DNA of 64,000 bases from an uncultured virus (IMG/VR IMGVR_UViG_3300034022_000723) (IMGVR_UViG_3300034022_000723:1-64000), one strand, 5' to 3'. Shown: positions 5,134 to 63,817, counted from the stretch's first letter. The notes: a model not told the origin generated them from the letters alone. A program made the numbers and translations.

Positions 5134-5213
5134 ATTTATTAAATGTATTTATAATAAGACCTACATAGGTCGTTAACCGTGATATATATCACAAGGATTT
5201 AGAACACATATAT

Positions 5214-10427: not shown

Positions 10428-10436
10428 TTATATAAT

Positions 10437-10703: not shown

Positions 10704-10705
10704 TA

Positions 10706-11569: not shown

Positions 11570-11574
11570 ATATA

Positions 11575-12282: not shown

Positions 12283-12288
12283 AAAATT

Positions 12289-22136: not shown

Positions 22137-22857
22137 ACAACCTTATTGGGTTAAGTTTCAATGGGATATGTCAACCCATCATGATAATCAATATGTAACC
22201 GAATATAACAAAACAAATAATAAAATATTAGATGAATTCTTATTAAATGATAATTACATTATTACATGTGATTTTAAAATAACAGAAGAATTTATTACCG
22301 ATGAAATTTGTATGATATATGGTAAACCTGGTAAAAATATTGGGTTATCATATAATAAAACTACAAATACTATGGCATTTGAGTTTTGGAATAAAACCGA
22401 AATAGAGGAATCTTTTAATTTTATTCCATTTAAAGACATAAAAAAAGAGGACATCCATAAAGGGGTAATTATAACTGTCATAAAAAAAGAAAATGAAATT
22501 ATAGTTTATAAAAATTTTGAAGAAAATAATAGAATTAGTTTTGAGGGTAACTTAATTGATGATTATAAAAATCCAGGTTTATTTTTAGGATGTTCCAGCC
22601 CTGAATGCGATTTTGAAAATGCTAGATATTATTGTCAAGTGGATGTTAATCATTTTTCAACTATAGTTAACCATAGTGATATTAATTTTTCTAAATTAAT
22701 TTATCAAAGTGAAACTGATGTTATATTAGAGGAAGAATTTTATAACGACATTCTTTTTCTTCATAATTTTAACAATATCAATAATTTAGGTATAATTTAT
22801 GATGAGTCTAAAAATACAAATTTTTTAGAAAGAGTACCTAAGGAATATATTAAATAA
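22120..22857 (+). CDS. Stand-alone LamG-like protein paralogous to the N-terminal repeats of the preceding gene
   Basis: YGKPGKNIGLSY...MAFEFW; LFLGC. Confidence 0.6.
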   Translation: MIINYKQPYWVKFQWDMSTHHDNQYVTEYNKTNNKILDEFLLNDNYIITCDFKITEEFITDEICMIYGKPGKNIGLSYNKTTNTMAFEFWNKTEIEESFNFIPFKDIKKEDIHKGVIITVIKKENEIIVYKNFEENNRISFEGNLIDDYKNPGLFLGCSSPECDFENARYYCQVDVNHFSTIVNHSDINFSKLIYQSETDVILEEEFYNDILFLHNFNNINNLGIIYDESKNTNFLERVPKEYIK

Positions 22858-22905
22858 CGTTTCAGATTATCAATAAAAAATATTATATTATAAAAAATAG
22901 AAAAC

Positions 22906-24354
22906 ATGTCAGAAGAATTGTCAAATTGGAGAGATGAACATTTAAATAAGATAAGTTGTAGTTTTTGTGCGGCAAAATGGTTAAATGTTAGTTTACATTT
23001 AGGTCATGGGTTTACAAATTCATGTCACCTACCATTACCACATCCAATAGATGTTGAAGCAATTAAAACCAACCCTGCGGCATTACATAATACTGATTTC
23101 AAAAAAGAAATTCGTAAAATGATGTTAGAGGGTGTTAAACCGGCTGAATGTTCTTATTGTTGGAAAATTGAGGATATCGGTAGAAATAATATTTCAGATA
23201 GAGTATATAAGAGTCAAATATATAGTTCAGAAGATATTGCGGCATTAAAAGAACTACCTTGGGATGCGGACATTGTACCACAAACTATTGAGGTATCATT
23301 TGATAGAACTTGTAATTTTGCTTGTTCATATTGTAATTCGGGATACTCAACAACATGGGGTAAAGACATAAAAGATAACGGTCCATATCAGAAATTCAAA
23401 ACAACAAGTGCGGGGGCATATTATGCTGACGGATCTTGGTCAGAGATTTATGGTAAGTACAATGAGAATAATCCATATGTGGATGCCTTTTTAAAATGGT
23501 GGCCTGAGTTATCACAAAAATTAATGGAAATACGTGTAACTGGTGGGGAACCATCACAATCTCGTAATTTCTGGCAGTTTATGGATACAATGAAACAATA
23601 CCCATCCCCTAATTTACGACTTGCAGTCAATTCTAACCTAGGTCTTAATGAAATGACTGTGAATAGGTTAATTAGTATATCTCACGAATTAGACATCAAA
23701 GAGTTTGATTTATACACAAGTTGTGAGGCTTATGGTGCACAAGCAGAATATATTAGAGATGGTTTAAATTATGAACTATGGAGAAGTAATTTAGTTAAAG
23801 TAATTGAGAGTGCTAAAATTAGACAAGTTGTTATTATGATGACAATTAATAGTTTGTGTTTATTTAGTATTACCGAATTTTTAGATGATATGTTGAAATT
23901 AAAAGAAAAATACGGAACACATAAACCAATTGTAGATTTTAACATATTAAGATGGCCAGCATTTATGTCACCACTTACATTACCAGATGACGTCAAACAT
24001 GATTTACATGGTAAGTTATCAATGTGGTGGAGAAAACATAAAAAAAATCCATTAATTAATATGAATGAAGGGGCTCAAATTCAAAGATTAATTGATTACA
24101 TTGAAGTTGTTAATAGAGGTCATAACACAAGTGAAATGGACATGTCAATGCAATATCACGATTTTAAGAGTTTTTATGTTCAATATGATATTCGTAGAAA
24201 TAAGAATTTTGTCGCAACATTTCCTGAGTTGGAAGATTGGTATAATTCATTGGTGGTTGACAATACAATTGGTGATGTTAAAGTTACTGACGGTAGAATA
24301 ACACATTTTGAACCTGGTGTTTATATTTCGGATAAAGAAAATTATAATAAGTAG
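22906..24354 (+). CDS. Radical SAM protein (twitch-type)
   Basis: FCAAKW...SCH; ECSYCW; CNFACSYC; IRVTGGEP. Confidence 0.85.
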   Translation: MSEELSNWRDEHLNKISCSFCAAKWLNVSLHLGHGFTNSCHLPLPHPIDVEAIKTNPAALHNTDFKKEIRKMMLEGVKPAECSYCWKIEDIGRNNISDRVYKSQIYSSEDIAALKELPWDADIVPQTIEVSFDRTCNFACSYCNSGYSTTWGKDIKDNGPYQKFKTTSAGAYYADGSWSEIYGKYNENNPYVDAFLKWWPELSQKLMEIRVTGGEPSQSRNFWQFMDTMKQYPSPNLRLAVNSNLGLNEMTVNRLISISHELDIKEFDLYTSCEAYGAQAEYIRDGLNYELWRSNLVKVIESAKIRQVVIMMTINSLCLFSITEFLDDMLKLKEKYGTHKPIVDFNILRWPAFMSPLTLPDDVKHDLHGKLSMWWRKHKKNPLINMNEGAQIQRLIDYIEVVNRGHNTSEMDMSMQYHDFKSFYVQYDIRRNKNFVATFPELEDWYNSLVVDNTIGDVKVTDGRITHFEPGVYISDKENYNK

Positions 24355-26229: not shown

Positions 26230-26821
26230 CACTGTAATAGAATTTGAAAAAAAAATTGCGGAGTTCTTCGGATCTCCGTTTGCCGTTGCGGTCGATAGTT
26301 GTACACATGGAATTGAATTATGTTTACGTTATAATAATGTAAAATCAATTAATGTTCCTAAACAAACTTACATCTCAATTCCGTTTTTAGCTAAAAAATT
26401 AAATTTAGGATTAGAATGGAGAACTCAAAATTGGAAAGATTTTTATTATCTTTCATATAGTGTTATCGATGCCGCAGTTTTATGGAAACCAAATAGTTAT
26501 ATTCCTAAAACTTTCATGTCAATTAGTTTTCAATATCAAAAACATTTATCATTGGGAAGAGGTGGCATGATATTAACCGACAATCAAGAAGCTGCTATTA
26601 AATTAAAAAAAATGTCATATGACGGTAGATTACCAAATATACCGTGGAAAGAACAAAATATAGATATGGTTGGATATCATTATTATATGACACCTGAAAT
26701 TGCGGAAGAAGGTTTAACTAAATTACCAACAGCAATATTAAATAAACCAAAAGAATGGACAATTAATGATTGGCCAGATTTGACAAAATTAGAAATTTTT
26801 AGAAAAAATGATATCAGTTAA
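26219..26821 (+). CDS. Short DegT/DnrJ/EryC1/StrS-family PLP aminotransferase
   Basis: FEKKIAEFFG..FAVAVDSCTHG; IDAA; SFQYQKHL..GRGGMI. Confidence 0.75.
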   Translation: MDFNTVIEFEKKIAEFFGSPFAVAVDSCTHGIELCLRYNNVKSINVPKQTYISIPFLAKKLNLGLEWRTQNWKDFYYLSYSVIDAAVLWKPNSYIPKTFMSISFQYQKHLSLGRGGMILTDNQEAAIKLKKMSYDGRLPNIPWKEQNIDMVGYHYYMTPEIAEEGLTKLPTAILNKPKEWTINDWPDLTKLEIFRKNDIS

Positions 26822-27818
26822 TAATGAATGGGGTAAATTAAAGGAGGTGTTTGTAGGTACAATCGACAACGCTAATATGCCAAAACATGGTATAGATTTA
26901 CATGCAATTAATTATGCCGATAAAGACAGAATCCCATATATAGAACAAGGTAATTTTGACGATAAGGTGTATGAAGAAACATATGAGGATTTAGAAAATT
27001 TAGTAAAAGTATTAAAAGACCTTGATATTAAAGTTAGAAGACCCGAAGTTATTAATACTGAAAATGTAATAAGTAATGGTTTTTGGAAAACAGACCAATA
27101 TTACACTTTCTGTCCAAGAGATACTGTTACAGTTATTGGAAATACAATATTGGAAGCCCCTATGACATTAAGGTCAAGACAATATGAAACATATTGTTTT
27201 AGAAATCAATTTATTGAATACATGAACGAAGGGGCAAAGTGGATATCCGCACCAAAACCAATCTTGAATGATGACAGTTACCAAAGAGATGATTTATCTA
27301 AATTAACATTAACCGAGAGAGAACCTGTGTTTGATGCTGCTAATATTTTGAGGTCAAATAAAGATATTTTATATCTTGTTAGTAATACTGGTAACAAGTT
27401 AGGTGGAAAATGGTTACAAAACCTATTAGGAGACCAATACAAGGTACATATCCTTGAAAACATGTATTCATATAGCCACTTGGATTCAACCATCGCATTA
27501 CTCCGTGAGGGTCTTTGTTTGTTAAATCCAGAAAGAGTAAATGAAAATAATATGCCTGAGATGTTAAAATCTTGGGATAAAATATGGTCACCACCAATGG
27601 TGGACATCGGTTACCATAAAGTTGAACGAGCTTCAGTATGGGTTGGTATTAATTTGTTATCAATAGATGAAAATACAGTTATTGTGGACAATAGACAAAC
27701 TGAACTGATTAAAGAATTAAAAAAATACAATATTGAGGCATTGGATTGTAAATTAAGACATTCAAGAACGCTTGGAGGGTCTTTTCATTGTGTCACGGCC
27801 GATATGATAAGAGAATAA
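26808..27818 (+). CDS. Amidinotransferase (glycine/inosamine-phosphate amidinotransferase family)
   Basis: NEWGKLKEV; CPRD; FDAAN; HLDST; GGSFHC. Confidence 0.85.
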   Translation: MISVNNEWGKLKEVFVGTIDNANMPKHGIDLHAINYADKDRIPYIEQGNFDDKVYEETYEDLENLVKVLKDLDIKVRRPEVINTENVISNGFWKTDQYYTFCPRDTVTVIGNTILEAPMTLRSRQYETYCFRNQFIEYMNEGAKWISAPKPILNDDSYQRDDLSKLTLTEREPVFDAANILRSNKDILYLVSNTGNKLGGKWLQNLLGDQYKVHILENMYSYSHLDSTIALLREGLCLLNPERVNENNMPEMLKSWDKIWSPPMVDIGYHKVERASVWVGINLLSIDENTVIVDNRQTELIKELKKYNIEALDCKLRHSRTLGGSFHCVTADMIRE

Positions 27819-50222: not shown

Positions 50223-51890
50223 ATGTATATAATAGGAATATCCGCATTTTACCACGACTCCTCTGTATGTTTATTCAGAGATAATCAACTAATATTCGCA
50301 TGTGAAGAAGAAAAGTTCACAGGTATTAAACATGATGATTCGTTTCCGGTCAGGGCGTTGGAATATATCTATAAACAATATAAGATTACACCCAAGAATT
50401 TACAAGTGATTTGTTATTATGAAGACCCACAATTAAAATACCAAAGAGTAATAGAAAACATCAAACCTCAATGGTTTAAGAATCCATTATATTCGTTGAA
50501 GTCCTATTTAAAAATACGTAGTAACATAAAAGAAATTGATAAGAGATTGAAAGAAATTTGTCCAACTGTGTTCTATTCAACTCACCACGAAGCGCATCAA
50601 TATTATGCACATTATACATCTCACTTTGAGGAATCCACATGTTTATCGGTAGACGGTGTAGGTGAGGTTGATACGGTATCTTTAGGAGTTGCAGATTACA
50701 ACGGTATCAAATACAGTTCACTTGCAAAGTATCCACATTCTATGGGTCTTTATTACTCTGCATTGACCTCTTATTTAGGGTTTAGACCGAATGAAGGTGA
50801 GTATAAGGTAATGGGATTGGCATCTTATGGTGACCCTCAAAAGTACATTAAAGAGGTACGTGATTTGATTTCATTTAAAAGTGGTAAGTTGGTGTGTAAT
50901 ATGGATGTATTTTGTTGGAATAAGACCGATAAATCTATGTTCAATGAGAAACTTGCGGAACTATTAAGTGTTCCACAAAGATTACCTGAAGAAACATTAG
51001 AACAAACACACAAAGATTTGGCGGCGGCTGTTCAATTAAGATACGAAGAGGTATTGTTTGAGATTATCAAATCAATTAGACACGTAAGTAAAAGTCCAAA
51101 CTTAACATTAAGTGGTGGTTGTGCATATAACGGAACGGCAAATGGTAAAATTATCGATAAGACGCACTTCACCCATCTTTGGATTCCACCGGCACCATCT
51201 GACGCAGGATCAGCAATCGGGGCGGTCGTTCATTATTTGGTTAAAGAACGTAAAATAAGAAGTAAAATCACAAGAAATCCATTTTTAGGTCCCGAATATT
51301 ATATGGATGATATTAGACGAGCAATTGGTACCAACAACTTTAAAAAGTTTGAATCTGAAAATAAATTAAGAACACATATAGCACAAAAATTATTTGAAGG
51401 TAAAGTTGTGGGATGGTTTAATGGTCATATAGAATTCGGATCAAGAGCATTGGGTAATAGATCAATATTGGCAAATCCAACATTACCTAATATGAAAGAC
51501 AGAATTAATAAGGTCATTAAGAAAAGAGAAGGTTTTAGACCGTTTGCTCCAATGGTAACCAAAGAGAAACAGGATCAATTCTTTGAGATGACAGACGATG
51601 TTCCATATATGAATCAAGTTGTTAAGGTAAAGGAAGAATATCGAGATAAGTTACTTGCAGTTACTCATGTGGACGGAAGTGCTAGAGTCCAAACAGTCTA
51701 CAAACACACCGTAATTCATGATTTATTAAGGGAATTTGAAAAATTAAGTGGTTATCCAATTTTACTGAATACCTCATTCAATGTTAAAGATAAGACAATG
51801 GTGTTGACACCGAAAGATGCGGTTGACACTTTCTTTGATACTGATATGGATATATTAGTAATGGGTAATTATGTTATGTATAAAAATTAA
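50223..51890 (+). CDS. O-carbamoyltransferase (NodU/CmcH/TobZ family)
   Basis: GISAFYHDSS; HHEAH; VDGVGE; EGEYKVMGLA; GGCAYN; EFGSRALGNRSILA; KREGFRPFAP; THVDGSARVQ; LNTSFN. Confidence 0.92.
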   Translation: MYIIGISAFYHDSSVCLFRDNQLIFACEEEKFTGIKHDDSFPVRALEYIYKQYKITPKNLQVICYYEDPQLKYQRVIENIKPQWFKNPLYSLKSYLKIRSNIKEIDKRLKEICPTVFYSTHHEAHQYYAHYTSHFEESTCLSVDGVGEVDTVSLGVADYNGIKYSSLAKYPHSMGLYYSALTSYLGFRPNEGEYKVMGLASYGDPQKYIKEVRDLISFKSGKLVCNMDVFCWNKTDKSMFNEKLAELLSVPQRLPEETLEQTHKDLAAAVQLRYEEVLFEIIKSIRHVSKSPNLTLSGGCAYNGTANGKIIDKTHFTHLWIPPAPSDAGSAIGAVVHYLVKERKIRSKITRNPFLGPEYYMDDIRRAIGTNNFKKFESENKLRTHIAQKLFEGKVVGWFNGHIEFGSRALGNRSILANPTLPNMKDRINKVIKKREGFRPFAPMVTKEKQDQFFEMTDDVPYMNQVVKVKEEYRDKLLAVTHVDGSARVQTVYKHTVIHDLLREFEKLSGYPILLNTSFNVKDKTMVLTPKDAVDTFFDTDMDILVMGNYVMYKN

Positions 51891-52048: not shown

Positions 52049-52486
52049 ATGTCAATATATTGGTTCACCGGACAACCCGCATCAGGTAAAACTACGTTAG
52101 TAAACAATCTCCTAACTCATTTTGGTAAGGAGAATACTATCATTATAGATGGTGACGATTTGAGGGACATTTTCCAAAATAAGGACTATTCTGAGGTGGG
52201 AAGGAGAAAAAATATTGAAAGAGCACAAGACATTGCTCAATTTTTGAATAAAAAGGGGTTTACGGTCTTGGTATCCTTAGTTTCACCATATAAAGACCAA
52301 AGAGAGGACTTTAAGAATAGAGAAGACGTTGTTGAGGTTTATGTTCACACGACGGAAGATAGGGGTAGAAATCAGTTTCACGTAGAGAACTATGAACCAC
52401 CTACCGAAAACTTTATAGATTTGGATACAACGGATAAAACCGAAGTAGATTCTTATTATGAAATATTAAAAAAATTAACACTATGA
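52049..52486 (+). CDS. cysC: Adenylyl-sulfate (APS) kinase
   Basis: WFTGQPASGKTT; IDGDDLR; YSEVGRRKNI; SLVSPY; YEPP. Confidence 0.85.
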   Translation: MSIYWFTGQPASGKTTLVNNLLTHFGKENTIIIDGDDLRDIFQNKDYSEVGRRKNIERAQDIAQFLNKKGFTVLVSLVSPYKDQREDFKNREDVVEVYVHTTEDRGRNQFHVENYEPPTENFIDLDTTDKTEVDSYYEILKKLTL

Positions 52487-52869
52487 GTAAGAAATATGCA
52501 ATGTATGTGGGCAGATGGCAAAATTGGCACAAGGGTCACGAATGGTTACTTAACCAACAATTAGAAAAGGGAAAGAATGTGTGGGTGGCAATTAGAAATG
52601 TGGAGACAGATGAAAACAACCCAAAAACGGCACAACAAGTTATGATGGATTTAGCTGAAGAATCCTTCTTTAAGGAAAATTCACATAGAATTAACATATC
52701 CATCATCCCTGATATTGAGAGTATCAATTATGGTAGAGGAGTTGGGTATGATGTCATTTACCATGAACCACCTGAAGACGTGGCAAAAATTAGTGGTACA
52801 AGTATAAGAAACGGGTATATTGACTCAAACGGAGATATTATAGAATATCCAGATATGAATGACAAATGA
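52483..52869 (+). CDS. Small HxGH nucleotidyltransferase (cytidylyltransferase-like)
   Basis: GRWQNWHKGH; ISGTSIR. Confidence 0.75.
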   Translation: MSKKYAMYVGRWQNWHKGHEWLLNQQLEKGKNVWVAIRNVETDENNPKTAQQVMMDLAEESFFKENSHRINISIIPDIESINYGRGVGYDVIYHEPPEDVAKISGTSIRNGYIDSNGDIIEYPDMNDK

Positions 52870-53081
52870 TAGTAGAACGTAAACGACATATAGCTAAAAC
52901 CATCTCATATCGTATTGTAAGTACCCTTATTGGGTTTCTAATAATATGGTGGGTAAGTGGATCAATTAAGGTCGGTACGGCTTTCGGAGTGGTAGAACTG
53001 ATATATAAACCCATCCAATATTATCTTCATGAAAGAATTTGGTATAAATGGATAAAATTTGGATTAAAAGATAAAAAATAA
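52866..53081 (+). CDS. DUF2061-like small membrane protein
   Basis: RHIAKTISYR...YYLHERIW. Confidence 0.75.
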   Translation: MIVERKRHIAKTISYRIVSTLIGFLIIWWVSGSIKVGTAFGVVELIYKPIQYYLHERIWYKWIKFGLKDKK

Positions 53082-53108: not shown

Positions 53109-54638
53109 ATGAGGACAGTATTAATAGGTTCGGACTTTATGTACGACAAAGATGGTAATTTAAAACCAATTGAAATCAATACCGCAGTTGGTTGGCATAA
53201 TAATACAATTGAAGAAACCGACTCACTGTTGGATTTAACAACATTGACTACATTTATAACCGATAATTCTTTTACCAAAGTCGTATATATCGGAAATATT
53301 TCTAATTTAGATGTAGAATTATCAGGTTCATGTACCACATTAGGAATTGAATATGAAAAACATTTGGTATATACAAACTCAATCACCATCCCATTTGTTG
53401 AGGATAACAATCAAACTCTAATTATTAGAAGTGCTTACGACACCACTGCATTGGTAGATGACACATATTGTAGAGATAAAGTTAATTTTTTAAATTTAAT
53501 AAAAGATTCTTCTTTTGGGTCTCAATTTGCTTATTTAGATGAAAACAATTCAATCGTTAGTAATATAACAACAATTAACGATAATGGGGAACATCCAAAT
53601 TTTATTTTAAAAGCAAGATTACCTGATTATGATAAAGAAGTTTATCCTAAATTTTATAAAGTATCTACACAAGAAGAATTAGATAGTCTTATTTCAAATG
53701 TAGTTACTTCTGATTATTTTTTAATGGAGTTTCATTTAAATCAATCTGAATTAATACAAGACCATATAAAAGTTTTTAGAGGATTAAATTTATTATTCCC
53801 ACCAAATTTAGAATCTATATCATTAGGTGGTTATACAAGAGCATGCGATGATAAGATTACAATAAACTCATCATTTAATCCTACTACATTTGAATTAACA
53901 AATGGTCGTGAAAAATATATTGCAGGTAATTATCAATTATTACTACCAAAATTATCAGATACAGACTTGGTATTGATGAGTGATGGTACATACAAGGTTG
54001 CAACCGAATTGGTGGTAGGGGATGTATTAAAAACAATCGATATTCCTAATCCATTTGATGTTGTAGATATGAGCGCAGTTGCAAATTATAGAATATCACA
54101 ATCCGAATTAGAGAGTGGTACAACATACTCAACAAATGCTATTACTAACATAAGACGAGTGAATACATATTCTAAAATTGTTAAAATAACATTTACCGAT
54201 GGTAGTGATTGGTTTGATAACCGACATTCAAATTACCTTTCAATTAGAAATAATGAAGTAAGATTTTTAAAACTAAATGGTGGGGATAACGATGATTCAA
54301 TGGTTATTGGTGACAATATATTATTATTAGATACATTAAATTTTGAAACACCTTTATTTATAATAAAAGAAGTATCAAATATTGAAATGGTTTCTGAATT
54401 TTTTGGTGGGTATGAAATAACCGTAGAAAACGCTCATATATTCTTAACAAAATCAGATGTGGACTCAGATAAATCATATGTTTCAATTGAACATAATGGA
54501 GTGGATTGTACATATGAAAGTTTAAATAATTGTGAGTTCGGTGGTATATGTGGAAAAAACCAGCAGTGTTGTCCACTATCATGGAACGATAGACAATGTC
54601 TAAAAACGATTCAATGTCTCGCATGTAACCAAAAATAA
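53109..54638 (+). CDS. Circularly permuted ATP-grasp-like domain + Hint domain + C-terminal Cys-rich peptide
   Basis: N-term GSDF..D.DGNLK.IEINT; FILKAR; Hint-like LVLMSDGTYK...LVVGD...YEITVE..H.F...EHN; 8-Cys tail. Confidence 0.65.
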   Translation: MRTVLIGSDFMYDKDGNLKPIEINTAVGWHNNTIEETDSLLDLTTLTTFITDNSFTKVVYIGNISNLDVELSGSCTTLGIEYEKHLVYTNSITIPFVEDNNQTLIIRSAYDTTALVDDTYCRDKVNFLNLIKDSSFGSQFAYLDENNSIVSNITTINDNGEHPNFILKARLPDYDKEVYPKFYKVSTQEELDSLISNVVTSDYFLMEFHLNQSELIQDHIKVFRGLNLLFPPNLESISLGGYTRACDDKITINSSFNPTTFELTNGREKYIAGNYQLLLPKLSDTDLVLMSDGTYKVATELVVGDVLKTIDIPNPFDVVDMSAVANYRISQSELESGTTYSTNAITNIRRVNTYSKIVKITFTDGSDWFDNRHSNYLSIRNNEVRFLKLNGGDNDDSMVIGDNILLLDTLNFETPLFIIKEVSNIEMVSEFFGGYEITVENAHIFLTKSDVDSDKSYVSIEHNGVDCTYESLNNCEFGGICGKNQQCCPLSWNDRQCLKTIQCLACNQK

Positions 54639-54657: not shown

Positions 54658-54735
54658 ATGACAATAACAGAAAAACAAACAATTAATAATGTAATGGGTC
54701 AAATTGGTTCACTAATTATTACCGCAAATTCTTAA
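54658..54735 (+). CDS. 25-aa micro-ORF MTITEKQTINNVMGQIGSLIITANS
   Basis: Read by hand; A-rich leader like other genes; fills the intergenic gap. Confidence 0.45.
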   Translation: MTITEKQTINNVMGQIGSLIITANS

Positions 54736-54756
54736 TAAAGAAATAAAATAAGTTAT

Positions 54757-55041
54757 ATGGATTTTGATTTCAAAAAAATCACTAAGGCTTGGTTTGATTC
54801 GTATTTTGGTTCGGATAAACAAAAAGAGATGGCGGTAAAACGTTCATCAATATGTGAAGTGTGCCCATCCCGTGACGTAAAAGTTAAAGGGATTGATTTA
54901 TTAACAGTATGTGGTGAATGCGGGTGCCCAATCAAGAAAAAAATATTTTCAGACGTTTTCAACGATTGTCCATTAAAAAAATGGGAATCAGTTGATTTAG
55001 AATATTTTCCATCAAGAAAAACTAATAAAACTTTATATTAA
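54757..55041 (+). CDS. Small Cys-rich metal-binding protein (DUF6171-like)
   Basis: R..ICEVCP...CGECGC...CPLKKW. Confidence 0.65.
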   Translation: MDFDFKKITKAWFDSYFGSDKQKEMAVKRSSICEVCPSRDVKVKGIDLLTVCGECGCPIKKKIFSDVFNDCPLKKWESVDLEYFPSRKTNKTLY

Positions 55042-55046
55042 ATTGT

Positions 55047-55427
55047 ATGATAACAGAAATCCATACATCAAATAAAATTTATATAAAATTTATTGATACT
55101 AAAAAAGGTTGGGGTGTCTTTTGTAAAGAAAAAATATTAAAAGATGAAATTGTAGAACAATGTTACGGAATAATTGATAATTATAAAACTACACCGTTAA
55201 AAGATTATTGTTTTGTATTAAACACAAAAAATCATCAGAACCACGACGCAATAATGCCAGTGGGGTATGGTGCAATATATAATCATAGTGATACACCAAA
55301 CATAACTTGGCAAAATATAGGTAAAATAGTAGAATTTATAGCCACTCAAGATATTGAAATTGGTGAAGAAATTTGTCATAATTATGGAGAAGGATATTTA
55401 GAAAAATGGGCCCACCGATTTATATAA
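55047..55427 (+). CDS. SET-domain protein methyltransferase
   Basis: KGWGVF; YNHSDTPN; FIATQDIEIGEEICHNYG. Confidence 0.85.
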   Translation: MITEIHTSNKIYIKFIDTKKGWGVFCKEKILKDEIVEQCYGIIDNYKTTPLKDYCFVLNTKNHQNHDAIMPVGYGAIYNHSDTPNITWQNIGKIVEFIATQDIEIGEEICHNYGEGYLEKWAHRFI

Positions 55428-56026
55428 TGAAAATCGCATTAATATATATCGCTAGAACAGGATCAACTTCCTTATTGAAGTATTTTGCAAAATTAAAACC
55501 TAATTATGTTTGTTATAATGAACCATGGTTTCCATGGGCAAAGAAAAATATACATACCGAAAATACGGAGTACAATGAATTAATTAAAAACGATAATTTA
55601 TTTATAAAATCTACATTAACCCATCTACCATGTTCATTAGAAACATTAATTTCTGATTTTGATACTGTTATTTTTTTAATAAGAAAAGACCTTAAATCCC
55701 AAATAGAAAGTCATATTTTAGTGAATAAAGAAATGTCATATTTAAACACCACAAAAAGAAAATATAACATACACAATATAACTGAAAGTGAAATTGAACA
55801 TTATAGTGAGATTACAAATAATCACATACAAAAAATAAAAACCACATCTAATACATATAATGTACCTCTATTTTATTATGAAGATTTATATTATGGTGAT
55901 TTTCAACCGATATTTGATGAATTGGGAATTGTATATAATAAAGAATATTATGATGAATATTTAAATATTTCTAACAAATATAGAATTGGTAATATGGACA
56001 TTAAAAACCATAAAACTTTAATTTAA
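55427..56026 (+). CDS. Sulfotransferase-like protein (P-loop, Stf0-like)
   Basis: ARTGSTSL; NEP; LIRKD...QIES; YYEDL; ATG at 55427 preferred. Confidence 0.65.
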   Translation: MKIALIYIARTGSTSLLKYFAKLKPNYVCYNEPWFPWAKKNIHTENTEYNELIKNDNLFIKSTLTHLPCSLETLISDFDTVIFLIRKDLKSQIESHILVNKEMSYLNTTKRKYNIHNITESEIEHYSEITNNHIQKIKTTSNTYNVPLFYYEDLYYGDFQPIFDELGIVYNKEYYDEYLNISNKYRIGNMDIKNHKTLI

Positions 56027-56503
56027 ATGAATATATGTAAAAATTTATTATCAGACAAAGAGTTATTTTTTTTAAATTCAATATGTTCAAATTTTGTTGA
56101 GACACAATTACCACACAATCGTAATAACTACGTTAGAAAAAACTTAAATATAAAAGAAGAGTTGTTAGAATATCAAAAAAGATGCTCAAAATATTTACCA
56201 GATGGGTATCAATTATATGATTTATGGATTAACAAGGTAACCAATAAAACAAATATTGATGACAATTATCATATTGATGTTGCGGATTTAAGTATCATCA
56301 CCTACATTAATGAAAATTTTGAGGGTGGAGAATTTCAGTATATTTTTAAAAATGAAGAAATAAAAGTAAAACCAATTATAAACCATAGCTTAATTATAAA
56401 TAAAGAAATAGAACATAGAGTTCTTAATGTAACTAATGGAGAAAGATTTAGTTTAATTTCTTTTTATAAAAAAATACAAAAAAAACAAAAAACATTAATT
56501 TAA
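56027..56503 (+). CDS. 2OG-Fe(II) oxygenase
   Basis: YHID; YINENFEGGEF; HRV; GERFSL. Confidence 0.8.
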   Translation: MNICKNLLSDKELFFLNSICSNFVETQLPHNRNNYVRKNLNIKEELLEYQKRCSKYLPDGYQLYDLWINKVTNKTNIDDNYHIDVADLSIITYINENFEGGEFQYIFKNEEIKVKPIINHSLIINKEIEHRVLNVTNGERFSLISFYKKIQKKQKTLI

Positions 56504-57565
56504 ATGAATACATTTAAAAATATAGATTTAAAAAATTATGTTTGTAGTGTTCCATTTAATTCATTAGAAATACATAATAATGTTTGCTTTGTATGTTGTC
56601 CATCTTGGTTACCAAATAAAATAGAACTTAATGAGATTCCTTTAAAAGATGTATATAATAGTGAACCTGTTATTGATATTAGAAATTCTATTTTAGATGG
56701 TTCATTTAAATATTGTAATAAAGAACTTTGCCCATATTTAAGTAAATTGGTAAATTACGGGGTAACATCTGGACCCGTTACTTTAAAAACAAAATTAAAC
56801 CCAAGTTTTTATAATCCTATTATAAAAAATAATACACCGGATTATCTTATAATGAATTTTGACAGGACATGCAATTATAAATGCCCTTCATGTAGAATTG
56901 ATTTAATTGTTGAAAATGGAGAAGGTATACAACGTGTTGAAAAAACAATTGAAGATATAGATAATTATTATTCTGCAAATGTAAAAACACTATACATAAC
57001 TGGTTCAGGTGACCCATTTGTATCGGTGGGGTTTAGAAATTATTTAAGAAATTTTAATCCTAAAAAATATCCAAAATTAATATCAATTCATTTACATACA
57101 AATGCAAGTATGTGGGATAAAAAAATGTGGGATAGTATGCCAAATATTCATAATTATGTAAACACTTGTGAAATCAGTATAGACGCTGGCACTAAAGATA
57201 CTTACGAAAATAAAACAAGAATAGGTGGCAATTGGGAAAATTTAATGAATAATCTTAAATTTATCAATACATTACCAATACGTGTTAAAACATCGTTTGT
57301 TGTTCAAGATAGTAATTATATGGAAATGGAAACATTTTATAATTTAATGTATTCTATATTTAGAAAAAAAGTAGATGTGTTTTTTGGAAAGATAACAAAT
57401 TGGGGAACATTTTCCGAAGGTGAATTTAAATTAAAACAAGTATGGGATGCCGAACATCCAGAACATGAATTATTTAAAAAAGAATTTAATAAAATATGGA
57501 AAAATCAAAATCTATTCCATAATTTATATGAGTTTATTGATAACACTAATAAAACTTTAATATAA
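56504..57565 (+). CDS. Radical SAM protein with N-terminal twitch/SPASM-like Cys cluster
   Basis: CSVPF...VCCPSW; C...CP; CNYKCPSC; GSGDPF. Confidence 0.8.
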   Translation: MNTFKNIDLKNYVCSVPFNSLEIHNNVCFVCCPSWLPNKIELNEIPLKDVYNSEPVIDIRNSILDGSFKYCNKELCPYLSKLVNYGVTSGPVTLKTKLNPSFYNPIIKNNTPDYLIMNFDRTCNYKCPSCRIDLIVENGEGIQRVEKTIEDIDNYYSANVKTLYITGSGDPFVSVGFRNYLRNFNPKKYPKLISIHLHTNASMWDKKMWDSMPNIHNYVNTCEISIDAGTKDTYENKTRIGGNWENLMNNLKFINTLPIRVKTSFVVQDSNYMEMETFYNLMYSIFRKKVDVFFGKITNWGTFSEGEFKLKQVWDAEHPEHELFKKEFNKIWKNQNLFHNLYEFIDNTNKTLI

Positions 57566-57571
57566 TTAAAT

Positions 57572-58087
57572 ATGAAACATAACATAATAAAAATTGACAT
57601 AAATGACATAAATTTAATAAAACAAGTTTATAAAAATGGTGAAGAAAATGGTCATAATGTAGAAACAAATCCATACAATAAAAGAAGGGATAAAAATACT
57701 TATAGTACTGAATTAGTTAAAAGTGAAACGTTTTTTTGTGATACACGTAATAAAGAATTAGTCGATATTGTTAAAAAATATATTAACATAAATGAAACAA
57801 CGGAATATATTGTTAATATGCATTATATTAATTATAAAATAGGTGAGGAAGCAAAAGAGCATATTGATACCGGTGCCTCAATAAGAACATATATAATATT
57901 ATTAAATGATAATTTTAATGGTGGTGAATTTTATCTGGATAATATCCATATCCCTCTAAAATTGGGCGAAATAATTGAATTTGATGCCAATTTATTACAT
58001 AAGGTTACTCCCATAATATCTGGCAATAGAGAAGTATTAGCGATATGGATTTTACCATCGCAAAAAAATAAAAAAACTTTAACATAG
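57572..58087 (+). CDS. 2OG-Fe(II) oxygenase
   Basis: HID; LNDNFNGGEF; HKV; GNREVL. Confidence 0.8.
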   Translation: MKHNIIKIDINDINLIKQVYKNGEENGHNVETNPYNKRRDKNTYSTELVKSETFFCDTRNKELVDIVKKYININETTEYIVNMHYINYKIGEEAKEHIDTGASIRTYIILLNDNFNGGEFYLDNIHIPLKLGEIIEFDANLLHKVTPIISGNREVLAIWILPSQKNKKTLT

Positions 58088-58251
58088 TGATAGTCCTGAT
58101 TTTATCACGTACAAGATGTGGATCTACTACATTATGTAAATGGATATCAAAAGAATTAGATATTGAATTAGATGAAACCCCATATGATAAAAAATATAGA
58201 AAAGACACATATACTTTAACGTATGATTTTAAAAGAAAAAATATTATTTAG
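58087..58251 (+). pseudogene. Internally deleted sulfotransferase remnant (54 codons)
   Basis: GTG start; (M)IVLILSRTRCGSTTLCKWISKELDIELDETPYDKKYRKDTYTLTYDFKRKNII carries the R.GST.L loop and KYR seen in 55427..56026. Confidence 0.55.
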
Positions 58252-58777
58252 TAAAGAGGAGTGTCAGTCCATTTTGAAAAATATTGAAAAATGGGATGAT
58301 ACTATTATAAGCGTACGATTGGGTGGACAATTAACCAACAAAGGAGGTATTATGAAATCGTTTAAAATAAATTGGGACGATAATAATAGTTGGATTAAAA
58401 ATAGAGTTATAAATTGGGTTAATTCTTTGGATGAGGTTTTGTATAAAATAAATCATAATAAAAACTTAAATGCGGGTTATAGAAAATATATCAAAGGTGA
58501 TTATTTTATAAAACATGATGATCATATTTACAATGGGGATAGGAGATTGTATACTATTGGTGTGATGATTCATAAATCGGAAGATTTAATTGGTGGAGAT
58601 TTAAAAATGTATATTAATAATGATGTAGTTAATATTGATTTTAATTTAGGTAATGTATATATATTTGATTCAAATACACCACATTCAGTTGATTTAATTG
58701 AATTGGGAGAAAGAATTACACTTATGTTTTTTATAGTTCAATCTGATACTATTAAAAATATAAAACATATTATATGA
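58223..58777 (+). CDS. 2OG-Fe(II) oxygenase
   Basis: KHDD; GGDL; PHSV; GERITL. Confidence 0.8.
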   Translation: MILKEKILFSKEECQSILKNIEKWDDTIISVRLGGQLTNKGGIMKSFKINWDDNNSWIKNRVINWVNSLDEVLYKINHNKNLNAGYRKYIKGDYFIKHDDHIYNGDRRLYTIGVMIHKSEDLIGGDLKMYINNDVVNIDFNLGNVYIFDSNTPHSVDLIELGERITLMFFIVQSDTIKNIKHII

Positions 58778-59271
58778 TAAAACAAAATAAACTATTTAGT
58801 AAAGAGGAGTGTCAGTCCATTATTTTTTATGGAAGTAATAATATTACCGATTGGGATTATAACGATAGAAAATACCACTCACAACCAATTAATTATTCAT
58901 TAGATACTAAATGGTTATTTGATAAGTTAAAGGATTTTGTTGAAAGAGAAACAACAATTAGGATTAGAACAATAAAAAAAACGATACATTTTCATAAATT
59001 TACAAAAGGTGATTGGTTTGGAAAACATAACGATGTTAGAGATAGAAGATTATACGCCGTGGGAGTTTTATTGAACGATGATTTTGAAGGTGGTGATTTT
59101 AAATTATACAACCCAAATGAAATTATATTAGATAAAGTTATTGGAAATACATATTTATTTGATGTAAGAATAGACCACGAAATAACACCAATTTTAGATG
59201 GAGAACGATATTCTTTATTGTGGTTTTTACAAAACGAACATGTAAAAATAGAAACAAATAAATTAATATAA
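58774..59271 (+). CDS. 2OG-Fe(II) oxygenase
   Basis: KHND; LNDDFEGGDF; HEI; GERYSL. Confidence 0.8.
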   Translation: MIKQNKLFSKEECQSIIFYGSNNITDWDYNDRKYHSQPINYSLDTKWLFDKLKDFVERETTIRIRTIKKTIHFHKFTKGDWFGKHNDVRDRRLYAVGVLLNDDFEGGDFKLYNPNEIILDKVIGNTYLFDVRIDHEITPILDGERYSLLWFLQNEHVKIETNKLI

Positions 59272-59272
59272 T

Positions 59273-59923
59273 ATGGAAAAAATATACTTTGATGATGAGA
59301 CATACATATGGAAAACTAAATTTGATATATCACATATGAAAGATAGTGTATTAGAAGAATGCCTTATTATTATTAAAGATATGGAAGATTTAAAGCCGAC
59401 GGATGCTTTTGGATTCTTTAGTGAATGGAAAGAAAATATAGATTTTAATGGTAATTTTGAATCAACTGCAAAAATACATGAAATAGTTAAAGAAGGAATA
59501 AATGTGTGTATTGAATTGTTTAATGAAAATATAAAATTACCATACAATAAAATAAATACAGAGGCGTGGATAAATGTTGTGAGAGCTAAAAATCCAAAGC
59601 AAAAAGATATTTCTAAGGAAAACGAAATAGTAATGCACAATCATACTGATTTAAATCATATGAGTAAAGTTTTTAGACCTGATTACACATATGTTCACTA
59701 TGTTCAGATGCCTGATAATTTAGAAGGTAACGATGGTGTGTTATACATAGAGGGTAAAGATGGAATTATTTATAATATTCTTCCAAAAGAAAATGATATA
59801 ATAATAATGGAAGGAAGAGTTCCACACGTACCTGCCTCTGCTAGAAAATCTACCAAAGATAGAATAGTTATAGCGGGTAATGTTGGATTTGAAATGATTA
59901 AAAAAACAAATACCTTAATATGA
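59273..59923 (+). CDS. 2OG-Fe(II) oxygenase-like (cupin) protein
   Basis: AWINV; HNH; YVHYV; PHVP; DRIVIAGN. Confidence 0.65.
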   Translation: MEKIYFDDETYIWKTKFDISHMKDSVLEECLIIIKDMEDLKPTDAFGFFSEWKENIDFNGNFESTAKIHEIVKEGINVCIELFNENIKLPYNKINTEAWINVVRAKNPKQKDISKENEIVMHNHTDLNHMSKVFRPDYTYVHYVQMPDNLEGNDGVLYIEGKDGIIYNILPKENDIIIMEGRVPHVPASARKSTKDRIVIAGNVGFEMIKKTNTLI

Positions 59924-60723
59924 GTCCATTAGAATATTGGAAACCTGAGACTTTTGAAATCTCATCATTTAAGTTTAAATTAGATGAACGAAAAAACAAA
60001 ATATTTAAAACATCGGGATCAGATAATACAGGTTTATGTACCTACACCTATAATGAATTAGGATTTAGGGGGGATAGTATAAAAAAAGAAGGATTTAAAG
60101 TAATGTCTTTGGGTTGTTCAATTACGGAAGGAGTTGGTGTAAATGATAATGAAACTTGGCCTGCACAATTTTGTAGTCATATGGAAAATGCGGTAAATTT
60201 TAATTTCGGAACAGGTGGAAGAAGTAATGATTTTATATGTAGATGTTTAATGAGTTATTATGATTTGATTAAACCAGATTTGGTTTTAATAATGTATACA
60301 TTCCCACATAGAAGAGAAATTTATACCGAAGATGGTGGAATTGAACCATTTATTCCAACAACTTCTTGGGGTTATTTAAAGGAGACGGATGACGGTATTA
60401 AAACACAAGAATATTTAACTTATTTACAAAATAATAATGAGGACATAATAAATTGGTATAAAAATCATTTATTAATAAAATATTTTTTAGAATCAAAAAA
60501 ATGTAATTGGATTTGGAATGGTGGAGAATTAAAATCACTTGAATATGATGACCCCAATAGGTTTGATGGAGATTACGGGAAATATTTAGATTTAGGTGTG
60601 GATAATCATCATCCAGGTCCAAACCATAATAAAACATATGCTCATAATTTACATGATTTTATATCAAAAAATTTCCCACAGTACATAAATAATTTACCAA
60701 AAAATATAGAAAATTTGATTTGA
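59920..60723 (+). CDS. SGNH/GDSL-like protein
   Basis: YNELGFR; LGCSITEGVG; GRSN; DNHHPG. Confidence 0.65.
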   Translation: MSPLEYWKPETFEISSFKFKLDERKNKIFKTSGSDNTGLCTYTYNELGFRGDSIKKEGFKVMSLGCSITEGVGVNDNETWPAQFCSHMENAVNFNFGTGGRSNDFICRCLMSYYDLIKPDLVLIMYTFPHRREIYTEDGGIEPFIPTTSWGYLKETDDGIKTQEYLTYLQNNNEDIINWYKNHLLIKYFLESKKCNWIWNGGELKSLEYDDPNRFDGDYGKYLDLGVDNHHPGPNHNKTYAHNLHDFISKNFPQYINNLPKNIENLI

Positions 60724-60754
60724 TTTTTCATTTATTTTCATTATATTATCATTA

Positions 60755-63751
60755 ATGAAAATACTTGCACATACATGTTTTATCGGAGTAACAGGATATG
60801 CTAATCACGCAAAGTCCTTTTTTTGTGCTCTGAACAAATACCACACAGTTAAGGTTAGAAACTCTACCATAGGTGGGGGTTGGAAGGGAATGAACGATAC
60901 ACCTCATGATGATGAACCATATATCACCGATGAGATGAAGGATATGTTAATTCTACAAACCCTAATCAATGGTGATGGTAGTAGATCTCATTTACCTATG
61001 TATGGTTATAAGAATGATTATAAACCTGACGTTCATATTGTATTGGTGGATATGAACAACTATTATTTTCACGAGAATTACGATGGATATAAGATAGCAT
61101 ATAACGTTTGGGAATCAACACGTTACCCACAAGATTTCTTTAAAAGATTAATGTATTTTGATGAGGTATGGGTACCGACCCAATGGCAGTTTGATTGTTT
61201 GGTTGAACAAGGATATCCATCATCAAAAATATCAATTGTACCTGAAGGAGTTGATGTGGAGACATTTAAACCGTTAAATAAGACACCAAAGAAAGATAAA
61301 TTTAGATTCTTACACTTTGGTAGATGGGATTATAGAAAAGGAACTACAGAGGTTTTAAGGACATTTGGTGAGGTTTTTAAAGGTAGAACCGATGTGGAGT
61401 TGATTGCGTCAGTTGAAAACCCATACGCATACGACGGAATGAAGACCACAGATGAAAGGGTTAAGTATCATAATATTAATGATGAGAATATTAACTTTAT
61501 TAAGTTCACCCCAAGAGAGGATTATGTGAAGTATCTACAAGAAGGTGACGTGTTCGTTACTTGTGCTCGTAGTGAGGGATGGAACTTACCGTTGATTGAG
61601 GCTATGGCTTGTGGAACACCATCAATTTACTCTAATTGGGGAGGTCAATTAGAATTTGCGGAAGGTAATGGTGTTCCCGTTAAGATAGATGGTTTAAGAC
61701 CTGCAAATGTGGAACATAAAGATTTCCCTGGTGAATATTGTGAACCAGATTGGAAAGATTTGGGAGAACAAATGTTAAATGTAATGAATGATTATAAAAA
61801 GTTTAAATCATTCGCAATAGAAGAATCAAAGGAAATTCATATAGATTTCAATTGGGATAAAATAGCAAAAACAGCATCAGAAATATTAATGGAAAAGAAA
61901 ACAATTAGAGAAGATGATTTTTATAAATCAGGAAAATTCTACACAGATGTAGACGTATTAGAAAATTTAGGGGACATTAAAGATTACCAAGGAGGGACTC
62001 TTGAAGTTGCGGATAAGTTTGGTTGGCCGAGAGCAATTTATCATGAAATTTTTAATTTAAAAGATTATTATAAATTCCCCAATCAAGACAAACGAATATT
62101 TGATGGAGATGTGGTAGTTGATTTAGGAGGAAACTTAGGTATCTTTAATAGATGGGCTTATAGTCAAGGTGCGTCTAAAGTAATTTCATTTGAACCAGAT
62201 AGAAGGTATTTCCAATTACTTTCAAAAAATGCCGACCCACGTTCAATATTATATAATGGTGCAATTGCGGATGAGATGGGTGAATTGGTTTTATCCGAAA
62301 CTGGACATTTAGGTGGATCTACATTATTGGAAACAAATGAAGTAACTAACACTTATGCTGTTAAAACATATACATTAAATCATTTGTTTGAAACAGGTGT
62401 TGTAAATAAAATAGATTTTTTAAAGATGGATATTGAAGGTGCTGAACATCACGCATTTTTAGGTATATCGGATGAAAATCTATTAAAGGTTAGAAACATA
62501 GCAATGGAATATCACCATAATTTATTAGGGTATAATGTTGAACTAAGAGAAAACCTTATCAAAAGAATGGCAGGATTAGGATTTGGTCATTTTACTTTAT
62601 TTTGTGGAGGTAACGACAACTTACAAATGTTATATTTTGAAAGAAAGGTCGCATCAAATAGAAGAACAAATGTACATTTCGTAGATGGTCCATTTGTTGA
62701 AATTAATGAGGATAATGAACACCAGTACAATGTTCAATTTATTGATGGGGATACGGGTGACATTGTCTATGAAACCAACATCAAGAGTAATCATTGGACA
62801 AGAGCATCTAAAAAATATTATGTTAATTGGATTGTTAAGATTAAAGGTATTGATAATAATTTTTATAGAGAGGAGAAATTTAATCCTGAAGGTCAAAGAA
62901 TTATGATATGTTTCGAATCTAAATCTTTGGGGGATAGTTTAGCGTGGATACCATATGTAGAAGAGTTTAGAATTAAAAATAAGTGTCATATTATATGTTC
63001 AACATTTAAAAATGATTTATTTAAAGGGCAATATCCTGAAATTGAATTTGTGGAACCTGGTGTTGGGGTGAATAACATTTATGGTCTATATAGATTAGGT
63101 TTATTTTATGATGATAAAAGAACAATTAGATATGATAATCATCCGTCCAATCCTAAAGTAGAACCATTGGGTAAAATGGCAACGGATATATTGGGTTTAG
63201 AATATAAAGAGATTAGACCTAAATTACCAACTTTTAGTAATAAGAAAAAGAAAAGAGTGTGTATTGCTGTCCATTCAACATCACAATGTAAGTATTGGAA
63301 CAACGCAACAGGATGGCAACAAGTGGTTAATCATCTTAAAAGGAAAGGTTATGAGGTAAGATTATTATCTAGAGAAGAGGATGGATATATGGGTAATAAG
63401 AACCCACAAGGGGTCGTACAACAAAAATCAGGACCAATCGAGAAGGTAATTCAAGTTTTAGAAGAGTCGGAACTTTTTATAGGTATTGGTAGTGGATTAA
63501 GTTGGTTGGCGTGGTCTGTGGGTATTCCTTGTGTCATCATTTCAGGTTTTAGTGAGGAATATAGTGAACCAACAATCGGAGTTTCAAGAATTATTAATAA
63601 AGATGTTTGTCATGGATGTTGGAATGTTTACGATTTTAACCCTGGAGATTGGAACTGGTGCCCTGTAAATAAAGGTACAAAACAACAATTTGAATGTTCC
63701 AAATCAATCACAGGTCAAGATGTCATAAAAGAAATTGATAAATTAATATAA
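60755..63751 (+). CDS. Fusion: GT4 glycosyltransferase + FkbM-type methyltransferase + TibC/Aah-like protein O-heptosyltransferase domain
   Basis: GRWDYRKG...RSEGWNLPLIEAMACG; VDLGGNLG..FEP...LKMDIEGAE; SLGD.LAW.PY...KYWN..GW...FIGIGSGLSWLAW...ISGFS...CHGCWN...WCP...FECSKSI. Confidence 0.8.
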   Translation: MKILAHTCFIGVTGYANHAKSFFCALNKYHTVKVRNSTIGGGWKGMNDTPHDDEPYITDEMKDMLILQTLINGDGSRSHLPMYGYKNDYKPDVHIVLVDMNNYYFHENYDGYKIAYNVWESTRYPQDFFKRLMYFDEVWVPTQWQFDCLVEQGYPSSKISIVPEGVDVETFKPLNKTPKKDKFRFLHFGRWDYRKGTTEVLRTFGEVFKGRTDVELIASVENPYAYDGMKTTDERVKYHNINDENINFIKFTPREDYVKYLQEGDVFVTCARSEGWNLPLIEAMACGTPSIYSNWGGQLEFAEGNGVPVKIDGLRPANVEHKDFPGEYCEPDWKDLGEQMLNVMNDYKKFKSFAIEESKEIHIDFNWDKIAKTASEILMEKKTIREDDFYKSGKFYTDVDVLENLGDIKDYQGGTLEVADKFGWPRAIYHEIFNLKDYYKFPNQDKRIFDGDVVVDLGGNLGIFNRWAYSQGASKVISFEPDRRYFQLLSKNADPRSILYNGAIADEMGELVLSETGHLGGSTLLETNEVTNTYAVKTYTLNHLFETGVVNKIDFLKMDIEGAEHHAFLGISDENLLKVRNIAMEYHHNLLGYNVELRENLIKRMAGLGFGHFTLFCGGNDNLQMLYFERKVASNRRTNVHFVDGPFVEINEDNEHQYNVQFIDGDTGDIVYETNIKSNHWTRASKKYYVNWIVKIKGIDNNFYREEKFNPEGQRIMICFESKSLGDSLAWIPYVEEFRIKNKCHIICSTFKNDLFKGQYPEIEFVEPGVGVNNIYGLYRLGLFYDDKRTIRYDNHPSNPKVEPLGKMATDILGLEYKEIRPKLPTFSNKKKKRVCIAVHSTSQCKYWNNATGWQQVVNHLKRKGYEVRLLSREEDGYMGNKNPQGVVQQKSGPIEKVIQVLEESELFIGIGSGLSWLAWSVGIPCVIISGFSEEYSEPTIGVSRIINKDVCHGCWNVYDFNPGDWNWCPVNKGTKQQFECSKSITGQDVIKEIDKLI

Positions 63752-63817
63752 AAATTTATAGATTTATTTCACAAATGTGATTTATAAAGTATTTATTAGG
63801 GTATAACAATATAACCT

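Follow-up and report, generated by a model that had tools for sequence, protein, structure and literature searches.

The Hint domains closest to the one described here are the type A BILs, exemplified by BIL2 of the Tetrahymena BUBL1 locus (6tmm/6y75) and by a Clostridium BIL (2lwy). According to PMC4031507, cleavage products dominate in type A BILs, and the mechanism proposed for them has the amine freed by Asn cyclisation attack an activated acyl group. Circularly permuted ATP-grasp ligases form a second group of relatives, comprising YgiC/YjfC of E. coli, the glutathionylspermidine and trypanothione synthetases, the eukaryotic glutathione synthetase, Cp1B, and 3k1t, a putative gamma-glutamylcysteine synthetase. 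YgiC is annotated as a peptide--spermidine ligase, and the GspS, YgiC, and glutathione synthetase enzymes activate the C-terminal carboxylate of the peptide itself. The graspetide, RimK, TTL, and R2K ligases are unpermuted single chains acting on separate substrates. In graspetide pathways, the substrate is a separate leader-core precursor with Ser/Thr/Lys to Asp/Glu crosslink motifs, in which Asp and Glu are the acyl donors. Borosins (OphMA) and other enzyme-core RiPPs gather the modifying enzyme and a C-terminal variable core in one chain, encoded amid tailoring genes (PMC7878506). Polymorphic toxins with a pretoxin HINT (PMC3113570) possess a conserved N-terminal part, a Hint domain, and a variable cargo thought to be released by autoproteolysis.

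The stretch of DNA analysed here (the window, 64000 bases) corresponds to bases 1-64000 of a 116,519-base virus record, the completeness of which is estimated at 35%. Its source is most likely a T4-like jumbo phage, because the complete contig of a gene-family relative (335,630 bases) also matches the Gp23 major capsid protein (E=1.8e-63), and because Atlas neighbours are 96-100% viral, Uroviricota being the commonest. Shine-Dalgarno-like words precede only 10 of the 131 genes called in the whole record, and upstream regions are A-rich, which suggests a host of Bacteroidota type. The sequencing runs containing the stretch are mostly lake and freshwater metagenomes. In the RNA run X20, three short contigs with 0, 1, and 10 differences cover the gene at a depth of ~3; they are not taken as expression, since DNA may be present. 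A promoter scan stayed at chance level (18 found versus 17.6 expected).

The ORF at positions 53109-54638 (+ strand) encodes a 509-aa protein made of three parts: aa 1-280 form a circularly permuted ATP-grasp domain, aa 281-463 a Hint domain, and the last 46 aa a tail with eight Cys. An earlier note on this DNA had described the same ORF, coordinates, tail, and Cys pattern, and this three-part fusion is real. The AlphaFold2 model of the protein has a pLDDT of 91.1 and a pTM of 0.86. No match at cut-off is found in Pfam, PHROGs, or NCBIfam; weak Polbeta and Rib matches, below cut-off, were rejected. Scoring of 8000 candidates yields 746 homologs at E<=0.001, which collapse to 285 representatives upon clustering at 50%, and two other IMG/VR contigs hold identical copies of the gene; the fusion is therefore not a product of chance. 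No relatives were found among 50,697 deposited phage records, and a GTDB scan returned two marginal partial matches in Microbispora (E=1e-3, aa 244-325), which were not counted as homologs and were left out of the locus analysis. The system is widespread and apparently restricted to viruses. One locus, L042, lies on a contig labelled as part of a giant-virus MAG, the family being otherwise on phage contigs, and may be misbinned. Viral scans with the long-cargo homologs P0209 and P0183 found no loci. Residue conservation is given below for an alignment of 147 sequences (the query, 48 close homologs, and 98 representatives) that leaves out fragments and the five longest proteins.

The first part (positions 53109-53948, + strand) is predicted, from fold models and invariant residues, to be the body of an ATP-grasp amide ligase. 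It begins at a G-x-D strand and an E-x-N hairpin, and it lacks the C-domain helix. Seven residues are conserved together (D9, E22, N24, R107, D117, K168, and R224): E22, N24, R107, D117, and R224, as well as P180, are invariant in the 147 homologs, D9 is found in 142 (the other five being gaps), and K168 in 146. Among them are residues matching the ATP-grasp ligand set (D, E-x-N, lid Lys, and Arg), which we take to be metal and ATP ligands; the register to RimK and YgiC is weak, as hhalign pairs D9/E22/N24 with RimK D248/E260/N262 and YgiC D102/E115/N117 at non-significant probabilities (0.2% and 0.5%). Structurally, the stretch 1-275 of the model superimposes on YgiC (Z 8.7, rmsd 4.6, 200 aligned) as well as on glutathionylspermidine synthetase and eukaryotic glutathione synthetases; this bears out the circular permutation that the earlier note had read from the early D...E-x-N motif. 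For the model of a Hint-less homolog, the 50 structural matches listed are all ATP-grasp by title, save two microtubule-complex chains, with moderate Z values, the best being 10.5 (3k1t). Foldseek also supports the ATP-grasp fold (E about 3e-5), and the ligase body further aligns to RimK, LysX/ArgX, TTL, and the RiPP ligase 7mgv (Z 5.2). The GSP_synth and CP_ATPgrasp Pfam families give no profile match above cut-off for the 509-aa protein or the homologs P0311, P0150, and P0267, and the PF03738 profile finds nothing in the whole 116.5-kb record.

The missing helix is encoded separately, as a 25-aa micro-ORF (positions 54658-54735, + strand) predicted to complete the ligase in trans. The gene is present in 187 of the 190 loci examined, corresponding to 124 distinct sequences, and an ORF of 24-50 aa follows in all 124. 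As a control, 365 of 1165 other genes have some small downstream ORF, and none of these 365 reaches 10 bits on either micro-ORF profile. The micro-ORFs belong to three types (34, 74, and 16 loci), and their dN/dS is 0.12-0.21. Among 374 proteins searched, four Hint-less ligase homologs end in a matching, fused helix (P0283, E=5e-12; P0150, 6e-6; P0311, 0.0015; P0267, 0.0097). Each of the four is a one-member cluster, so that the change may have been either a split or a fusion; P0283, from a contig of 1 kb, may have arisen by deletion or be a chimera. In the P0311 model, the helix spans residues 295-314 with a pLDDT of about 94, and including it moves the end of the alignment from 216 to 241 in RimK, from 198 to 223 in LysX, and from 245 to 302 in TTL. 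RimK residue 241 closes the helix just before the G-V-D strand, the point at which the phage chain starts; the phage ligase is thus a permutation cut between helix and strand, with the Hint domain, the cargo, and the stop codon lying between the ligase body and the helix. In complex modelling, the natural ligase-helix pair of L042 scores 0.91 against 0.01 for the best control, a mark attained by 116/157 solved complexes and 2/215 mismatched pairs, although this pair is a relative's and not the window's 25-aa one and, being the halves of a split gene, may owe its score to a resemblance to solved ATP-grasp structures. At least 87% of contacts recur between runs, and the partner pLDDT is 73 or higher. 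Since the helix is fused in four Hint-less homologs and aligns to that of RimK, the micro-ORF is, on these models, the C-domain helix of a split enzyme. It tracks the ligase and not the peptide (97% versus 87% identity in the 16 closest pairs). Two other roles were rejected: that of an immunity protein, the micro-ORF being conserved with the ligase, fused in Hint-less homologs, and aligned as a helix, and that of a leader peptide, in favour of the split helix.

The second part (aa 281-463, positions 53949-54497, + strand) is a Hint domain without N-terminal nucleophile or block-B His that retains the terminal His-Asn. A profile of the 147 homologs matches the KlbA intein 2jmz (E=1.5e-8), and the model of this segment superimposes best on BIL2 (6tmm; Z 14.8, rmsd 2.9, 145 aligned), as a beta-fold of the Hint superfamily with its termini in intein register. 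Several inteins align to residues 281 to 463 from chain position 1 to the last Asn; Lys281 therefore corresponds to intein position 1 and Asn463 to the terminal Asn, with Gly464 at +1, as the earlier note had placed them. Position 1 is Lys in 65 of the 147 homologs, His in 29, Ser/Thr in 12, and Cys in none. At the B10 and F4 positions, assigned by motif register, His is found in 0/147 (B10, aa 374, Ser here), and Cys and Asp in 0/147 and 7/147 (F4, aa 436), while F13 is His in 66/147. At +1, 14/147 have Pro and 1/147 Cys. By the definitions given in PMC4031507, class 1 inteins have Cys/Ser1, a block-B Thr/His, and Cys/Ser/Thr at +1, where the phage protein has K281, S374, and G464; class 2 inteins combine Cys+1, B10 His, and F4 Asp, the first two being found in 1/147 and 0/147; and class 3 inteins have a Cys at F4, found in 0/147. 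The absence of these residues excludes class 1, 2, and 3 splicing, in agreement with the claim of the earlier note, and the residues for Asn cyclisation alone remain. His462 is found in 144 of the 147 homologs, and Asn463, the sole invariant residue of the entire Hint, in all of them, down to about 23% identity. From this conservation, the Hint domain likely performs Asn463 cyclisation only, freeing the cargo with an amine on Gly464. Both the conservation boundary and the cargo swaps fall exactly at Asn463. However, His-Asn may be conserved for another reason, since it is kept near chain ends, in 19 homologs (P0346-P0364) that stop 1-7 residues past it, and in 8/9 of the second Hint domains found in some cargoes. 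Of note, in the clade of P0346-P0364, P0207, P0235, P0237, and P0248, the 1-7 residues after His-Asn are mostly basic, and in the related P0253, P0168, and P0223, cores of only 3, 7, and 8 residues stand between two Hint domains.

The third part, the cargo (46 aa, positions 54498-54635, + strand), begins with the Gly after His462-Asn463 and displays a C-C-C-CC-C-C-C pattern. Variability is confined to it: in the 120 closest homologs, the ligase is 62.5% and the Hint domain 57.4% identical to that of the query, against 20.9% for the tail and 8.0% for its non-Cys positions, so that a homolog check upholds the suggestion of a hypervariable tail on a conserved ligase and Hint (~21% versus 57-63%). 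For 16 pairs whose ligases are at least 90% identical, dN/dS amounts to 0.10 in the ligase, 0.07 in the Hint domain, 0.33 in the tail, and 0.12 in the micro-ORF. Synonymous divergence is doubled in the tail (pS 0.234 versus 0.114), and pooled counting (tail dN/dS 0.20-0.33) does not reveal positive selection; the tail changes fast under purifying selection, perhaps with swapping. In one natural variant contig, at least 12 of 30 differences fall inside the 138-base tail. No template repeat for retroelement diversification is present in the 116.5-kb record, itself about 35% of a complete genome. An even Cys count is seen in 288 of the 293 distinct tails (20-68 aa), 130 of these having six Cys, for which reason disulfides, probably four in the window's cargo, fit better than 4-Cys Zn sites. 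The tail is modelled with low confidence (pLDDT about 48-59).

Cargoes also differ in kind. By motif, the 147 sequences comprise 112 with a peptide only, 14 with a long cargo, 9 with a peptide and an S74 chaperone, 8 with a peptide and a second Hint, and 4 nearly empty; P0223, counted among the 14 long cargoes, is a further second-Hint form. Five homologs of 1129-1667 aa carry large cargoes, with BACON matches in 3/5. The D/E/N/R/D/K/R set of the ligase is invariant in these five and, as read by eye, its motifs are retained in the homologs with cargoes of 1-7 residues. In the nine homologs with a core between two Hint domains, the second Hint has both Cys1 and a His motif in block B (unambiguously T-x-x-H in 6/9), and in the nine S74 homologs, the chaperone begins directly after the core. 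Such add-ons appear to come and go, since the second-Hint forms are scattered on the ligase tree (8 rows require 7 changes, no fewer than in shuffles). In clade B, the core begins with S/G/A/T in 60/74 and ends in K-[LIVFA] in 52/71, an ending that resembles the x-x-L-I tail of the island enzymes described below; in clade A, that of the window, K-[LIVFA] is found in 1/34, and the C-terminal residue is not conserved. Asp and Glu are scarce in the cargoes (2.6% and 2.1%).

The most constant neighbour, in 113/124 loci, is a 94-aa protein with a CxxC..CxxCGC..CP motif (positions 54757-55041, + strand). It matches phrog_13558, of unknown function (E=1.9e-6), and has viral Atlas neighbours, with one DUF6171 lead at 0.89 concerning 30% of the cluster's members. 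A run of tailoring-type enzymes (positions 55047-63751, + strand), delineated by library matches, motifs, and synteny, then comprises SET, sulfotransferase-like, several 2OG-Fe(II) oxygenase, twitch radical SAM, SGNH-like (weak), and glycosyl/methyltransferase genes; the sulfotransferase-like ones, without library match, are presumably such by their motif. Upstream lies a trio (positions 52049-53081, + strand) of an APS kinase, a 128-aa cytidylyltransferase-like protein (weak), and a DUF2061 protein, found in 44, 51, and 49 of the 124 loci and travelling together; this optional part of the island is a probable supply of activated sulfate. Across the 124 loci, 2OG oxygenases occur in 112, two sulfotransferase-like families in 107 and 80, radical SAM enzymes in 38, and a Trp halogenase in 44 (e.g., L040:5438-6667), the latter in 42/74 clade-B loci, whose cargoes all contain Trp, and 0/34 clade-A loci. 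A coupling between halogenase and Trp was tried and rejected, the Trp content of clade-B cargoes being the same with and without a halogenase in the locus (2.74 and 2.78; the loci are truncated).

Island enzymes share a C-terminal signature. Across loci, nearly all of them end in x-x-L-I (e.g., 224/237 oxygenases), the APS-kinase trio and unrelated neighbours being mostly devoid of it. In the record, a [LIVFM][LIV]-COOH tail is found in 9/11 genes at 54750-63800 and 7/26 of the upstream island, and is rare elsewhere (0/25 genes at 1-28700, 1/69 beyond 63800); KTLI, NKLI, and KSLI are examples from the island at 28759-63751. This tail could serve as a signal for docking, targeting, or degradation, or else as a substrate of the ligase. 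By their synteny, the island enzymes may be linked to the peptide, and since the island also holds sugar-pathway genes, some may act on glycans or fibres instead. Fibre-like genes at 1426-13950 and from 63818, with Pro/Thr and Gly/Ser/Thr/Asn repeats, are possible substrates of the island glycosyl- and sulfotransferases, and one of them (5214-9050) ends in an S74 chaperone. The same island holds a carbamoyltransferase (50223-51890, Pfam) and, by eye, an amidinotransferase-like gene (26808-27818), and two further large CxxxCxxC proteins at 19335-24354 resemble radical SAM enzymes by eye. Inspection by eye revealed neither a signal peptide nor an exporter, and no thiol oxidase was recognised among the 30 + 15 neighbour representatives scanned (about 94 families listed).

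Taken together, the locus may encode protease-free peptide tagging by a jumbo phage, a pathway that would lack any described parallel. A split ligase would free its own tag and weld it to a phage protein or close it into a ring, and hydroxylases, halogenases, and sulfo-, methyl-, and glycosyltransferases recruited by docking tails would decorate the tag; we give this general scheme an even chance. Its favoured version, put forward tentatively, is a ligase that delivers a tag. First, the 509-aa precursor would bind the 25-aa helix, completing the ATP-grasp C domain, as models and natural fusions suggest. The Hint domain, unable to form the N-terminal thioester, would then cyclise Asn463 only, leaving a cargo with a new alpha-amine at Gly464. 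The ligase would activate an outside carboxylate as acyl-phosphate and join it to this amine, ATP chemistry taking the place of the thioester step lost from type A BIL splicing. The most likely acceptor would be a protein of the phage itself, for instance one on the virion surface; the x-x-L-I tails of island proteins are a second candidate. Finally, judging from synteny, hydroxylases and sulfotransferase-like, methyl-, glycosyl-, and radical SAM enzymes might decorate the cargo or its carrier, yielding a swappable disulfide-rich surface tag.

Tag delivery is preferred because it alone fits cargoes of 1-1200 residues borne by ligases that keep their catalytic residues, and because the S74 (9/147 by motif, and in the fibre-like gene of the window) and BACON add-ons, domains associated with virion-surface proteins, point to such proteins. 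It is also consistent with the loss of N-side Hint chemistry while Asn463 is kept in 147/147, and with a split helix that would complete the ligase by synteny, fusions, and the complex model; the mechanism proposed for type A BILs (PMC4031507) offers a precedent for the attack of the freed amine on an activated acyl group. Against it, cleavage and ligation are predictions and no acceptor was found; His-Asn persists where almost nothing follows and in second Hint domains; the non-canonical block F (F4 Asp in 7/147, F13 His in 66/147) could slow Asn cyclisation; and the +1 residue is in 14 homologs Pro, a poor nucleophile. Furthermore, the chemistry of the fold neighbours favours the cargo as acyl donor, the four Hint-less homologs indicate that the ligase can do without a cargo in cis, and the Trp content of clade-B cargoes is indifferent to the halogenase.

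This donor chemistry would suit a fused RiPP precursor, in which the Hint domain frees the N-terminus and the ligase either cyclises the peptide head to tail, as in cyclotides, or attaches an amine (a polyamine, for example) as a cap to its C-terminus, the latter being free natively or after removal of the second Hint or S74. The nine double-Hint and nine S74 homologs, in which both add-ons would unmask the C-terminus, the regular ends of clade-B cores, and the enzyme-core precedent of borosins (PMC7878506) argue for this reading. It is nevertheless unlikely, being inapplicable to cargoes of 500-1200 or 1-3 aa, whose ligases keep their catalytic residues, and finding no conserved C-terminal residue in the window's own clade. 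An equally improbable reading is that the Hint domain releases a free disulfide-rich effector against the host, a rival phage, or grazers, the ligase being only a carrier with its own role as a RimK/R2K-like protein modifier or an island small-molecule ligase. In polymorphic toxins, the Hint is proposed to release variable C-terminal domains (PMC3113570), and the R2K ATP-grasp ligases carried by jumbo phages have host proteins as their predicted targets of modification (PMC7824862); the raised synonymous divergence of the tail fits cassette swapping, and Hint-less and nearly cargo-less ligases exist. Nevertheless, a free effector would leave the ligase-cargo fusion in all 124 distinct locus genes unexplained, and it is at odds with a next ORF that tracks the ligase in place of a variable immunity gene, and with the lack of a visible signal peptide or exporter. 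The idea that no cleavage occurs, the Hint being a structural or docking domain and the tethered Cys tail a Zn/redox sensor or substrate-recognition module, is slightly less likely still: loss of block B, degeneracy of block F, His-Asn near chain ends, the fixed ligase-Hint arrangement suggested by the pTM, and the metal binding of Cys-rich peptides in a reducing cytoplasm are in its favour, but Asn463 is the sole invariant Hint residue, cargoes swap precisely there, and the even Cys counts fit disulfides.

The system is real and falls outside every family tested. The earlier note did not recognise the architecture as described; the full-text literature searched, to which most subscription journals are external, and Pfam, PHROGs, and NCBIfam do not show it either, although the supplements of PMC7824862 and PMC11118758 could list members. 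The anatomy, permutation, loss of Hint residues, and tail variability of that note stand, and its functional proposal of a self-releasing precursor is retained in conditional form. Each part has known relatives; the arrangement is new, as its logic would be. If tag delivery or ring closure holds, it would constitute a new class of virus-run ribosomal peptide pathway and a new use of Hint chemistry, with ATP in place of the intein thioester step. The enzyme would join proteins at the expense of ATP, with an apparent tolerance of many N-terminal residues and cargo sizes, and would be a natural split enzyme, which may be switched on by a 25-residue helix. At least 293 distinct disulfide-type mini-protein sequences are on offer, and viruses would be the makers of natural mini-protein scaffolds, heavily modified and numbering in the hundreds. 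The pathway would also be a possible reason for the islands of 2OG oxygenases, halogenases, and sulfotransferase-like genes in freshwater jumbo phages.

Compared with borosins, the N-terminal domain is an ATP-grasp and not the alpha-N-methyltransferase that defines them when fused to the core; in addition, release would rely on the Hint domain and not on a separate protease, the core is disulfide-rich, and the bearer is a phage. Polymorphic toxins have a trafficking domain where the phage protein has an enzyme; its cargo lacks any known toxin domain, and the downstream ORF is the conserved ligase helix and not a cognate variable immunity gene. Graspetide, RimK, TTL, and R2K ligases likewise apply ATP-grasp chemistry to ribosomal peptides or proteins; set against the graspetide features listed above, no separate precursor of that kind was seen, and the tails are poor in Asp/Glu. 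Type A BILs, including 6tmm/6y75 and 2lwy, are the top structural matches of the phage Hint and share its C-terminal His-Asn without +1 nucleophile. They keep the N-terminal thioester step, whereas the phage Hint has Cys1 in 0/147, lacks the block-B His, and is preceded by a fused ATP-grasp. The permuted ATP-grasp ligases share with the phage ligase a D..E-x-N hairpin that precedes the pre-ATP-grasp domain (Z 7-10.5), at about 10% sequence identity; 3k1t is colinear through the final helix (rmsd 4.5, 249 aligned). The phage chain is cut between this helix and the G-x-D strand, and the alignments to YgiC and GspS end short of the helix, at model residue 294-296. The Arg of the YgiC R-x-D motif corresponds to Gly7 in the phage ligase, where R224 is invariant. 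Unlike its permuted relatives, the phage ligase has its helix in a separate gene and its body fused to a Hint domain and a cargo.
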